Of a stretch of 64,000 nt of DNA, positions 23,524 to 26,461 are shown in pieces (position 1 is the first letter of the stretch; each line of letters opens with the position of its first letter). This DNA is from Planctomycetota bacterium (GTDB lineage: Bacteria > Planctomycetota > UBA1135 > UBA2386): NCBI GenBank assembly GCA_041178545.1, contig JBEGVB010000024.1:3355-67354 (forward strand). Direction: 5' to 3'. Made by a program: the position numbers and the translations under genes. Under the pieces are notes generated by a model that saw only the letters and a program-made list of their open reading frames with translations, had not been told where the DNA came from and did no database searches.

Positions 23524-24150
23524 TCAGGCTGCGTACAGGTCGATGTCGAGCTCGAGCCCGAGCGCGCCCAACTCGGCGACGAGGTCGCGGTCGAGGTGGA
23601 AGCCAGCCATGGTCTCGACGGCACCGTGGTAGGCAATGGCAACCTGTGCCGACTGCAGGCCGCGCAGCGCGAGCACCTCGTCCCAGCGCGGCTCCGCGCG
23701 CAGCATCGCAACCAGCTCGGCAACGTTCTCCTCGGGCCAGTGCCAGCCGGGCAGTTCCACCTCGCGGATCCAGAGGCCGTGGTCGCGCACCCGCGAGCTG
23801 CCGTGCTGCACCTCGCCCTTGGCAAAGGCACGCGTGGGTACCATGCGGAGCAGGCTGGAGACCGCTGCGGGCTGCAGGTCACCGAGGCCGAGGACGAGTT
23901 CGACGCGCGAGCCCGGCAGCACCGAGAAGCCTTCCTCGCGCCATCCATCCGCAACGGGCTTCCACTGCAGCTCCACCACGGGCGAGGTCCTGCCGACGCG
24001 GAAGTACTGGCGCAACAGCGTGCCGCTCGCGTCCGTGTGGAAGGCCATCTGACGGGCCCAGTCGACCTGCCGCGCCACCATGCTGCGGATGGGGTCGCGC
24101 CCGGTGCACTGCAGCCGTCCGAACGGGACCTGCGGCGCGGGTGCGTGCAC
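23524..24150 (-). CDS. Hypothetical protein (C-terminus resembles DUF4279)
   Basis: GTG start just after the Pus10 stop with GAGG upstream; ends ...LGALGLELDIDLY. Confidence 0.5.
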   Translation of the reverse strand: MHAPAPQVPFGRLQCTGRDPIRSMVARQVDWARQMAFHTDASGTLLRQYFRVGRTSPVVELQWKPVADGWREEGFSVLPGSRVELVLGLGDLQPAAVSSLLRMVPTRAFAKGEVQHGSSRVRDHGLWIREVELPGWHWPEENVAELVAMLRAEPRWDEVLALRGLQSAQVAIAYHGAVETMAGFHLDRDLVAELGALGLELDIDLYAA

Positions 24151-24151
24151 C

Positions 24152-25009
24152 TCAGTCCTCCCCTGGGGCGGGTGCCGCGAACCGCGGGCCCTCGACGTCG
24201 TCGGTGAGGATCTCGAGCACGTCCAGCACGTCGCACCTGCAGGCCGTGCCCAGCAGCGAGGCCAGCGAGGGAACGGTCCTGCCCTCGTCGCCACTGATCC
24301 ACTCCTTCACGTAGGTGCCGTGCTGGCACAGCAGCCTGAGCTCGAGCCGGTCAGGGGCCATCACCTGCAGGTCGACCACCCGCACACGGCGGCGGCGGTC
24401 CAGGTCGGCGCGGCGGTGTGCCACGCGCTGTGGCGTGCGCTGGACCACGACTTCCTCGAACCCCACGGTGCGAGCCACCAGGTCTGCAGCCACGGGGGCC
24501 GCGCACGCGACCTCTGCGCGGTAGACCTTGTCGAAGTGCGACTCCTTCCAGTGCGGCACGCGGTCGCGCTTCACGCGCACGAACGGGGCCAGCTCGATTG
24601 CACCGCCAGCCCGTTCGACGATCTCACGGCGCAGTGCCTCGAGGTCGACCTCGGGGTTGCGCACACCGTTCAGCTCGATGACGAAGGGGCGGCCCGCGCC
24701 CAGCATCAGCACGTCGATGTCCTCGCGGCCGGCACCGTGGAACGCACTCGAACGGGCGCGGAACGCGGGCACCATGCGCCGCGCGACCAGTTCCTGCACC
24801 GACTCCTTCGTCAGCTTGCCGAAGCCGCCGCACGTCGCGCAGCCCTCCCGCCGGCGGCGGTTCCCCTTGCAGGCAGGGCACCAGAAGATGGTCTGCGGCA
24901 GGCCGCGCACGAGCTTGCGGTACCGGGACTCGAACCAGAGGTCGAGCCTCGCACTGCGACGGTCGCTGCGGTCACCGGTGACTCCACCGGGAGAGGGTGT
25001 CTCGCTCAC
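24152..25009 (-). CDS. pus10: tRNA pseudouridine(54/55) synthase Pus10, catalytic domain only
   Basis: RYRKLVRGLPQT, CxxC...CxxC insert, FHGAGREDIDVLMLGAGRPFVIE, QRTPQRVAHRRAD, GTYVKEWISGDEGRTVPSL, LDV. Confidence 0.9.
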   Translation of the reverse strand: MSETPSPGGVTGDRSDRRSARLDLWFESRYRKLVRGLPQTIFWCPACKGNRRRREGCATCGGFGKLTKESVQELVARRMVPAFRARSSAFHGAGREDIDVLMLGAGRPFVIELNGVRNPEVDLEALRREIVERAGGAIELAPFVRVKRDRVPHWKESHFDKVYRAEVACAAPVAADLVARTVGFEEVVVQRTPQRVAHRRADLDRRRRVRVVDLQVMAPDRLELRLLCQHGTYVKEWISGDEGRTVPSLASLLGTACRCDVLDVLEILTDDVEGPRFAAPAPGED

Positions 25010-25050: not shown

Positions 25051-25479
25051 TCAGCCTGCCGGCACGGGGTCGAGCGGGGCCTTGCGCCGGCCCTGGGCAC
25101 CGCCCTGGGCCTGGGTGTTGCGACGGGACCGGAAGCGGCCCACGAACCCGAAGAACTCCTTCACGTCGAGCGGGCTCTGCAGGAACGAGTGGATGTGGTG
25201 CTTGGCCTTCTGCACGCCCATGTCCTTGATGCTGGCTGCGGGAGCGATCACCACGAGTTCGGTGTCGTGGTCGAACGAACGCATGTACTGCAGCAGTTGG
25301 ACCGTCTCCGCGTCGCGGGGGTCCACGCCCAGGAACACGCAGTCGAACTTCTTGTGCCGCAGCTGGGCGATGGCCTCGTAGCCGAGCCCCACCTGCACGT
25401 GGCAGTCGGGGAACTGTTCGAGGCCAACCTTCACCTGGTCGCGGACCAGAGGATCCTTCTCCACCAGCAGGAACTCCAT
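25051..25479 (-). CDS. Single-domain atypical response-regulator receiver
   Basis: MEFLLVEKDPLVR..., FDCVFLGVD, FLQSPLD: REC fold with degenerate active-site residues. Confidence 0.65.
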   Translation of the reverse strand: MEFLLVEKDPLVRDQVKVGLEQFPDCHVQVGLGYEAIAQLRHKKFDCVFLGVDPRDAETVQLLQYMRSFDHDTELVVIAPAASIKDMGVQKAKHHIHSFLQSPLDVKEFFGFVGRFRSRRNTQAQGGAQGRRKAPLDPVPAG

Positions 25480-25513
25480 GGTATTGGCCCTATCGGCATG
25501 GGAGGCTGCGCGA

Positions 25514-26461
25514 GTGAACTTCCAGGCAGGTGTCGACGAGGCAGGGCTCGGCCCGATCCTTGGCCCACTGGTCGTCGCGGGCGTCGCGATGGGCGGTCCC
25601 GAGGGTGCCGACCCGTGGCAACTGCTGGCCGGGCGGGTCGCCCGCGAGCGCCATGCGAAGGGCAAGTTGCGCGTGGCCGACAGCAAGAAGGTGCACTCGG
25701 GGGCCCACGGCCTGGAGCGGCTCGAGCAGACCGTCCTCGGCTTCTGGGGTGCCTTCCGCGGCGGCCTGCCGACCACCCTGGCCGAGTGGCTGCACGACCT
25801 CGGCCACGACACCAGCGGCCTCAGCCGGTGCCCTTGGTACCAGTCGCTCGACCTTGCCCTCCCGCTGCACACGGACCGTGGGCTGCTGGAGCTGCAGGCG
25901 GCGATGCTGGCGCGGGACCTCGAGTCCGCAGGCCTGCAGCTCGCCCGCATCGCCGTGCGCCCGGTCGAGGTCGAGGAGTGGAACGCGCTGATCGCCGAGA
26001 CCGACAACAAGAGCCGGGCCCACTTCCGTGTGTATGCGGAGGTCATCGCACGCATCCTCGAGGTGCTGCCCGCGGGCGCCCACCTCGTTGCCGACCGGGC
26101 TGGTGGCCGCATGCACTACCGCAACGACCTGGTGCGAATCCGCCCCAGTTGCCGCGTGGAGGTCGTGCAGGAGCAGAAGGCCGTGTCGGTCTACAGGCTG
26201 CACGAGGACGGTGCGACGCGCACCGTCACCTTCAGCGAGAAGGCCGAGAACCGGGCTTTCCCCACGGCTCTCGCCAGTTGCTTCGCCAAGTACACCCGCG
26301 AGCTGTTCCTGCGCGTGCTCAATGACTGGTTCGCCTCCCGCGTGCCAGGCATCACCCCCACCGCCGGGTACTTCGTCGACGGGCACCGGTTCCTGCGGGA
26401 CCTGGAGCCGCACGCGGCCGGCCTGGCACTGCCACGGGAACTGCTCGTGCGCTGTCGCTGA
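25514..26461 (+). CDS. Ribonuclease HII-like protein
   Basis: AGVDEAGLGPILGPLVV, ADSKKV, VAD, KAE, ALASCFAKYTRE, TAGY. Confidence 0.75.
   Translation: MNFQAGVDEAGLGPILGPLVVAGVAMGGPEGADPWQLLAGRVARERHAKGKLRVADSKKVHSGAHGLERLEQTVLGFWGAFRGGLPTTLAEWLHDLGHDTSGLSRCPWYQSLDLALPLHTDRGLLELQAAMLARDLESAGLQLARIAVRPVEVEEWNALIAETDNKSRAHFRVYAEVIARILEVLPAGAHLVADRAGGRMHYRNDLVRIRPSCRVEVVQEQKAVSVYRLHEDGATRTVTFSEKAENRAFPTALASCFAKYTRELFLRVLNDWFASRVPGITPTAGYFVDGHRFLRDLEPHAAGLALPRELLVRCR

Follow-up and report, generated by a model that had tools for sequence, protein, structure and literature searches.

A catalytic-domain-only Pus10 in planctomycetes without detectable TruB: a predicted tRNA pseudouridine-55 synthase

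Which enzyme makes pseudouridine 55 (psi55) in the tRNA T-loop of a bacterium in whose genome no TruB can be found, and could a Pus10 protein reduced to its catalytic domain be that enzyme? The question is raised by a gene in a 64,000-nucleotide (nt) stretch of a Planctomycetota genome (GenBank assembly GCA_041178545.1, contig JBEGVB010000024.1, positions 3,355 to 67,354), which we refer to as the window and to which all coordinates below refer. The open reading frame (ORF) at 24152..25009 on the minus strand, with a GTG start and a TGA stop, encodes a protein of 285 residues, and an earlier note based on the letters alone had described it as a bacterial Pus10 lacking the THUMP domain. We find that the ORF is a complete Pus10 catalytic domain in which all catalytic and loop motifs are present. 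Judging from its sequence and from the genomes in which it occurs, the gene probably encodes an active single-domain Pus10 that acts as the tRNA psi55 synthase of the organism, as a non-orthologous replacement of TruB.

The family assignment was evaluated with profile searches and with a structure model. Pfam Pus10_C (PF21238) matches the protein with an E-value (E) of 7.5e-57 and 193 bits against a cut-off of 27, over profile positions 4–231 of 232, and it is the only Pfam family found in the ORF; a match to TruB_N (PF01509), PseudoU_synth_1 or PseudoU_synth_2 was absent from the same scan, and nothing in it places the protein in a known bacterial family such as TruA, TruB or RluA. The NCBIfam equivalog model for Pus10, TIGR01213, scores 264.7 bits (cut-off 200), where only the C-terminal part of the profile, positions 161–401 of 402, is aligned. 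An AlphaFold2 model computed on a 70-sequence alignment has a mean predicted local distance difference test score (pLDDT) of 94.9 and a predicted template modelling score of 0.88, with a pLDDT of 97 for residues 41–60. The top Foldseek match of this model is human PUS10 (2V9K; E 5.9e-23, template modelling score 0.75, root-mean-square deviation 1.8 Å, 253 columns), and the next is TruA (E 1.8e-7), a likeness that reflects the shared core only. A sequence search of solved structures returned 2V9K alone (E 2.6e-25, residues 65–273). Both profiles are thus above their curated cut-offs and human PUS10 is the best structural match, which supports the identity given in the earlier note. Identity to archaeal-type representatives amounts to 38–47%.

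The catalytic motifs and the CxxC…CxxC insert named in that note were all located in the ORF. The motif RYRKLVRGLPQT spans residues 29–40 and is followed by the zinc knuckle of the forefinger, CPAC-x9-CATC (residues 44–60, 24830..24880, minus strand), with its cysteines Cys44, Cys47, Cys57 and Cys60. The active-site motif HGAGREDID (residues 91–99, 24713..24739, minus strand) contains GREDID at residues 94–99, with the catalytic Asp97, Arg95 two residues before it (position −2) and a histidine at position −6; the roles of the active-site arginine and aspartate and the definition of the GREDxD motif are taken from PMC3753934. Further downstream are MLGAGRPF (residues 102–109), the thumb-loop motif QRTPQRVAHRRAD (residues 190–202, 24404..24442, minus strand), whose counterpart in human PUS10 lines up with it, and GTYVKEWISGDEGRTVPS (residues 231–248). 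Gly94, Arg95 and Asp97 are invariant in the 70-sequence alignment, which has 24 invariant columns overall, and the four cysteines are invariant both there and in a 15-sequence alignment. In the clade to which the window protein belongs (the window-type clade, described below), catalytic and loop residues are intact in 37 of 37 members, all of which keep the histidine at −6 and the His-Arg pair of the thumb. Archaeal Pus10 (Methanocaldococcus jannaschii, Pyrococcus furiosus) shares the Pus10_C domain, GREDxD with arginine at −2, the four-cysteine forefinger and the RVxHRR thumb, whereas human PUS10 has a serine at −6.

The formation of psi55 by this protein is predicted from a phyletic anticorrelation with TruB. 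The genome that contains the window is a Planctomycetota metagenome-assembled genome (MAG) of 3.89 Mb in 218 contigs, 92.3% complete and with 2.2% contamination. Four approaches failed to find TruB in it: the TIGR00431 profile and the PF01509 profile gave no match, tblastn with three planctomycete TruB queries reached a best E of 0.13 (the queries find each other at E <= 1e-60), and a small profile made from the TruB queries, which had also taken in a wrong-frame row (L132), returned nothing. Among 61 genomes drawn from the host's own family and order, which comprise 10 family codes, Pus10_C is present in 60 and TruB in none. The suggestion of the earlier note that the protein may replace TruB is borne out. 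In a sample of 201 genomes spread evenly over the Planctomycetota, a strong Pus10_C match is found in 33 and TruB, by either model, in 102; 31 genomes have Pus10 only, 100 have TruB only, two have both and 68 have neither. Four further genomes of this sample give weak Pus10_C cross-matches, which fall on TruB-like genes. Archaeal Pus10 likewise occurs in genomes without TruB.

Three further observations belong to this survey. The one genome of the window's family without Pus10_C, G019, is 94% complete in 8 contigs, and TruB was not found in it either. The genes behind the weak cross-matches (G069:C9, G115:C109, G123:C168 and G139:C644) encode a divergent TruB-like protein with weak partial TruB matches, which aligns to Pus10_C at positions of about 120–203; G069 also has a normal TruB. 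TruB is patchy even within single family codes (3 of 9 genomes in f21), and in the genomes with neither enzyme psi55 is either dispensable or made by a third enzyme.

The same pattern recurs in a second phylum. A scan of named genomes detected full-length Pus10 in five loci (L070, L073, L079, L082 and L095), of which four bear the title Bipolaricaulota and one Fraserbacteria, and TruB_N was found in none of these five genomes. In a larger Bipolaricaulota sample (G253–G306; 51 genomes that carry no completeness figures, one of them titled Fraserbacteria), Pus10_C is present in 50 of 51, and TruB_N is above the cut-off in 0 of 51, with one genome at a sub-threshold 19.6 bits. The Bipolaricaulota proteins resemble the window form in being bacterial and in residing in genomes without TruB; unlike it, they are of full length, match a profile of the archaeal N-terminal region (see below) with 123–155 bits, have a 4-residue knuckle spacer and branch apart from the planctomycete clade. 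Bipolaricaulota apparently represent a second, separate bacterial exchange of TruB for Pus10.

The window protein differs from canonical Pus10 in what precedes the catalytic domain. Archaeal Pus10 has an N-terminal Zn-ribbon and a THUMP domain, together about 160–200 residues in the loci sampled, and human PUS10, with 530 residues, has an N-terminal THUMP/Zn domain; the window protein has neither. In the window, the gene directly upstream, a receiver-only response regulator (25051..25500, minus strand), has its stop at 25051, 41 nt from the Pus10 start, which leaves no coding room, and the in-frame translation upstream of Pus10 is an Arg/Pro/Gly-rich read-through of the receiver gene. Together with the alignment of TIGR01213 from position 161 only, this agrees with the earlier statements that there is no room for THUMP and that the upstream gene is unrelated. 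A hidden Markov model (HMM) trained on the N-terminal parts of Pus10 from 37 archaeal loci found nothing at E <= 10 in the six-frame translation of the genome and no match in any of 38 loci of the window-type clade; it matches 52 of 52 other loci, of which 37 are its training rows and 15 are not, five bacterial ones among the latter. PF22023, the THUMP family of archaeal Pus10, has no match in the whole genome at E <= 1. A split gene, or a THUMP partner acting in trans, was considered and rejected, the sole THUMP protein of the genome being an RlmL-type methyltransferase (RlmL_1st, THUMP, UPF0020). Given the missing N-terminal THUMP/Zn domain, we file the window protein as a domain-reduced variant and not as a canonical Pus10. 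Its best 120 homologues are all 267–322 residues long.

Longer forms occur elsewhere in the phylum. Twenty further Pus10 loci from other planctomycete families (L109–L128) encode proteins of about 335–420 residues that are 35–46% identical to the window protein and have space for 83–272 residues upstream of the catalytic domain. Weak matches to the N-terminal HMM are seen in 12 of the 20, at positions of about 73–167, the THUMP half, as in DPANN sequences, and PF22023 gives 13–24 bits in 6 of 10 tested, below its cut-off of 28. A model of one such protein of 379 residues (pLDDT 93.2) aligns with 2V9K over 330 residues with a Z-score of 26.4 and a model range of 4–370, and therefore reaches into the N-terminal domain of the human structure. 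These proteins have kept a THUMP-like module of about 90 residues and lack the N-terminal Zn-ribbon part, and they resemble the DPANN (Iainarchaeota) forms of about 320–350 residues; both share the catalytic domain with the window protein, and the planctomycete ones also the phylum, and both differ from it in the module and, mostly, in a 4-residue spacer. A reduction series runs through the phylum, in which other planctomycete families keep the THUMP-like module and the catalytic-only form marks the end point. A different architecture was met in P0156, a 542-residue protein in which a CTP-dependent riboflavin kinase domain (PF01982) is fused to THUMP and Pus10_C.

In the window-type clade the zinc knuckle is expanded. 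The two CxxC pairs of the window protein are separated by nine residues, which include a clade-specific basic insertion, NRRRR (24848..24862, minus strand). The spacer has 6, 9 or 10 residues in 33 of the 37 window-type sequences, compared with 4 residues in 47 of 47 archaeal-type sequences (one mis-binned row counted in) and in 5 of 5 other bacterial ones, and the basic insertion is absent from all 52 non-planctomycete sequences compared. Lys and Arg make up 53% of the expanded spacers and Asp and Glu 3%, and the domain has a median net charge of +10 among window-type members as against +5 in the others, the archaeal proteins included. Across 58 planctomycete loci, an expanded spacer goes with the lack of an N-terminal match in 39 cases and with its presence in one, while a 4-residue spacer is found with such a match in 10 loci and without it in 6. 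In the remaining two loci no knuckle was matched, and the 58 include two duplicates. The rows are kin, and one clade together with family f63 contributes most of the signal, which makes the association between spacer and THUMP loss suggestive only. The insertion may make up for the lost THUMP domain.

The trees place the window-type sequences in a group of their own and single out no donor. A quick IQ-TREE analysis of 89 rows under LG+C20 unites all 37 window-type rows in one clade, with a Shimodaira–Hasegawa-like approximate likelihood ratio test (SH-aLRT) support of 99 and a stem length of 0.69. A single clade of all bacterial rows, a group named after the tree had been seen, is disfavored by the approximately unbiased (AU) test (p-AU 0.03). 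When 20 rows were added, many of them with long branches and deviant composition, the free quick tree of 109 rows made Iainarchaeota (DPANN) the neighbours of the window-type clade, with an SH-aLRT of 96, and set the remaining planctomycete sequences apart; when all 57 planctomycete rows were constrained to a single clade, the tree was 5.5 log-likelihood units better, with a p-AU of 0.57, so that one origin in the phylum is not rejected. We have therefore dropped both a DPANN donor, whose Iainarchaeota sister position is lost under the AU test, and two separate planctomycete acquisitions. Of the ancient archaeon-to-bacterium transfer proposed earlier, the bacterial host and an old, ameliorated gene are borne out, and trees that include archaeal Pus10 leave the donor lineage unnamed.

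What, then, would the enzyme do? The conserved aspartate, arginine, histidine and thumb His-Arg pair, together with T-loops that begin with UUC in 41 of the 47 tRNAs predicted in the genome, lead us to the reading that the lineage makes its psi55 with this protein, which would act on the T-arm alone. The window Pus10 would recognise the T stem-loop by itself, in a pinch formed by the zinc-knuckle forefinger and the thumb loop (RVAHRR); U55 would be flipped out, with Arg95 filling the gap, and Asp97 would isomerise it, and the Arg-rich knuckle insertion may supply RNA contacts in place of the lost THUMP domain. TruB belongs to a different family. The product predicted for the window protein, psi55, is also that of TruB, and the two have the core fold of pseudouridine synthases in common (Foldseek E of about 1e-5), but TruB has no forefinger loop, and it fills the gap left by the flipped base with a histidine where Pus10 uses an arginine, according to PMC3753934.

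The best-studied relative, M. jannaschii Pus10 (MjPus10), is described in the same paper. It makes both psi54 and psi55 in an Escherichia coli truB trmA double mutant, that is, without TruB and TrmA, and its minimal substrate is a 17-mer T stem-loop. Neither product is made without Asp275 and Leu440, and Arg273, Tyr339 and the forefinger segment ffl2 are required for psi54 only. A mutant in the N-terminal Zn site makes less psi54 in vitro and keeps psi55, and in vivo it still makes psi54 (PMC3753934). A 2025 review describes the basic residues of THUMP and the Zn cysteines as crucial for psi54 and not for psi55 (PMC12710931). Because the N-terminal domain is thus reported to matter for psi54 and not for psi55, a psi55-only specificity appears the more likely one for the window protein. 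As to the two T54 enzymes that the earlier note had in mind, TrmA and TrmFO, neither was found in the genome: no TrmA reached the cut-off, and searches for TrmFO and for TrmY (PF04013) were also negative. T54 is nevertheless possible, since four RlmD/RumA-type 5-methyluridine (m5U) methyltransferases are present (C16, C100, C52 and C167; L014–L017), all above the TIGR00479 cut-off. If T54 exists in this organism, it would come from one of these, as in Thermococcales; according to PMC6380271, there are Archaea in which Pus10 is limited to psi55 and T54 is the product of a RumA-type enzyme. RNA-modification paralogues are altogether numerous for a 3.9-Mb genome, with four of the RlmD/RumA type and eleven of the RluA/RsuA type.

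Several points weigh against assigning psi55 formation to this gene as the replacement of TruB. The 68 of 201 Planctomycetota genomes that have neither TruB nor Pus10_C, many of them at least 90% complete, imply that in this phylum the loss of TruB by itself needs no replacement, and in five of them, G019 included, a search with the window protein as query gave no match. Two genomes of family code f51, G101 and G127 (L114, L116 and L132), each 86% complete with 3–4% contamination, carry Pus10 and TruB together, which could reflect a transition under way, two enzymes that divide the work, or contamination. The genome that contains the window is a MAG in 218 pieces, and it has 11 RluA/RsuA-type (PF00849) synthases that could in principle act on tRNA. 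Several MjPus10 mutants are inactive on the bare T stem-loop, according to PMC3753934, so contacts outside the T-arm matter, and an enzyme without THUMP may be weak or have a shifted substrate range. Moreover, none of the marks linked to psi54 (a long forefinger, the histidine at −6, the His-Arg pair of the thumb) is missing, and a psi55-only product is therefore not assured.

These points feed two alternatives that have to be weighed against psi55 formation alone. One is that the protein is a dual-specificity enzyme like that of M. jannaschii, which makes psi54 as well as psi55 and gives psi-psi-C instead of T-psi-C T-loops. We hold this to be unlikely, although all three of the psi54-linked features reported in PMC3753934 are found here, the forefinger even in expanded form, TrmA and TrmFO are missing as described, and the Zn-site mutant of MjPus10 retained psi54 in vivo. 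The window protein, on the other hand, has lost the very domain whose residues are called crucial for psi54, TrmY is missing too, and the histidine at −6 and the His-Arg pair occur in nearly all sequences sampled, a set that contained no Thermococcales, and so may discriminate little. The presence of four RlmD/RumA-type methyltransferases also speaks against dual specificity; the m5U sites known in 23S rRNA are rather few, and enzymes of this type make T54 in some Archaea. In its most far-reaching version, in which the whole order runs T-loop pseudouridylation with a single-domain Pus10, the Arg-rich insertion replaces THUMP docking and psi54 and psi55 are both made, the proposal seems to us doubtful. 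If it were true, these bacteria would have psi-psi-C T-loops in archaeal style and, with the phylum-wide full-length Pus10 of Bipolaricaulota counted in, Pus10 would have taken the place of TruB in Bacteria on two or more occasions. The other alternative is recruitment to a different substrate (rRNA, tmRNA, mRNA or a subset of tRNAs), with bulk psi55 made by an RluA/RsuA-type paralogue or absent. The loss of THUMP removes a module thought to dock on the acceptor end, and the genomes that live without TruB and Pus10, the two that keep both and the wealth of PF00849 paralogues all fit such a shift; the 11 RluA/RsuA-type synthases, one of which lies on the window's own contig at about 696–1163 of the window, and the single TruA of the genome keep the idea alive. 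We nonetheless rate it as improbable, given the strong anticorrelation with TruB in two separate phyla, the strict conservation of the T-loop-recognition loops and the catalytic residues, and a known minimal Pus10 substrate that, according to PMC3753934, is the T stem-loop itself. We know of no enzyme of the RluA family that makes psi55.

A catalytically dead remnant or a pure RNA chaperone, and an archaeal fragment assembled or binned into a bacterial genome, were also considered. A gene that has lost an entire domain could be on its way to decay, and TruB is reported to have a chaperone role beyond catalysis (PMC7912444); yet 60 of 61 relatives have an unbroken reading frame, Gly94, Arg95 and Asp97 are among the columns that stay invariant across 70 homologues, and the model is a confident, complete fold, so that a dead or purely chaperoning protein is very improbable. 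A precedent for an artefact exists in our data in the form of a Faecalibacterium-titled contig with a methanogen-like Pus10. For the window, an artefact is hardly conceivable, because the GC content is even over the 64 kb (0.67–0.73), the flanking genes (RNase HII-like, receiver domain, FabA-like, valyl-tRNA synthetase) are of bacterial type, with synteny kept in as many as 30 of 38 related loci, the gene is found in 60 of 61 related genomes, single-contig assemblies among them, and the sequences form their own clade apart from the archaeal ones. The Pus10 gene itself has a GC content of 0.709 and a GC content at third codon positions (GC3) of 0.885, within the range of 0.878–0.920 of six neighbours, which agrees with the earlier remark that its codon usage matches the host; equally, flanks that are bacterial and syntenic in relatives speak against the chimeric contig with archaeal DNA that the note had allowed for. 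One clade, conserved synteny and a host-like GC3 indicate that the gene is old and vertically inherited. It is neither an artefact nor a recent arrival. The precedent is a separate case: L097, a contig binned under the title Faecalibacterium sp. CAG:74, carries a Pus10 of full length that hardly differs from the one in a methanogenic-archaeon bin (L089), most likely owing to a binning error.

The surroundings of the gene are conserved to different degrees. The most conserved neighbour is a divergently oriented RNase HII-like gene (25478..26461, plus strand; Pfam RNase_HII E 3.3e-10, with only an N-terminal stretch listed), which lies within the flanks of 30 of 38 planctomycete loci. The receiver gene, which matches Pfam Response_reg with 30.2 bits, exactly at the cut-off, is found upstream on the same strand in 17 of the 38, at about 30–280 nt in 14 loci and about 1.0–1.6 kb in 3, and a FabA-like gene is near Pus10 in 17 as well. 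On the other side, a DUF4279 gene (23524..24150, minus strand; Pfam DUF4279 E 3.5e-10) has its GTG start at 24150, 1 nt after the Pus10 stop. The earlier note had proposed that the two may be co-expressed; the spacing is as it described, and as a conserved operon partner the gene was rejected, being kept in 0 of 10 loci and later in 4 of 38, all of them close relatives.

Public data point to a freshwater planctomycete as the host. Near-identical DNA (at least 87% of sampled words) occurs in riverine, freshwater and drinking-water metagenome runs from about 5–6 studies besides possible source studies. Contigs of 151–336 nt from four riverine RNA libraries, with 0–2 differences, fall inside the Pus10 ORF; parts of the searched stretch have no contig cover in these four libraries, and DNA carry-over is possible, which makes the RNA contigs a weak hint of transcription only. 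The sources of the closest proteins are given as "Planctomycetes bacterium" or "Planctomycetota bacterium".

The existence of the gene is already on record in databases, since annotation pipelines name some close homologues "tRNA pseudouridine(54/55) synthase Pus10" (NCBI) or "tRNA pseudouridine synthase 10" (JGI). Previous work on the family reportedly includes a paper on Pus10 evolution by Fitzek et al. from 2018 and a biochemical study of the roles of Pus10 domains by Kamalampeta et al. from 2013. Three publications state that Pus10 is absent from bacteria (PMC6380271, 2019; PMC7912444, 2021; PMC12710931, 2025). Our full-text literature search found no paper on a bacterial Pus10; supplementary files, which lay outside that search, may mention bacterial homologues. 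An exchange of TruB for Pus10 that is order-wide in planctomycetes and phylum-wide in Bipolaricaulota, the catalytic-only architecture with its reduction series and the zinc-knuckle insertion appear to be undescribed so far.

TruB and psi55 are regarded as near-universal in bacteria, and a planctomycete order and the Bipolaricaulota, with Pus10 and with no TruB seen, revise this textbook distribution. The exchange also accounts for a systematically missing marker, as TIGR00431 is, we presume, one of the standard bacterial single-copy marker genes. For the enzyme family, the catalytic-only Pus10 represents a natural deletion experiment on the contribution of THUMP to psi54/psi55 specificity. 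A single phylum offers this form, intermediates in which a THUMP-like module persists, and an insertion that is a candidate for compensation, and what each of them does is directly testable by complementation of E. coli truB/trmA mutants.

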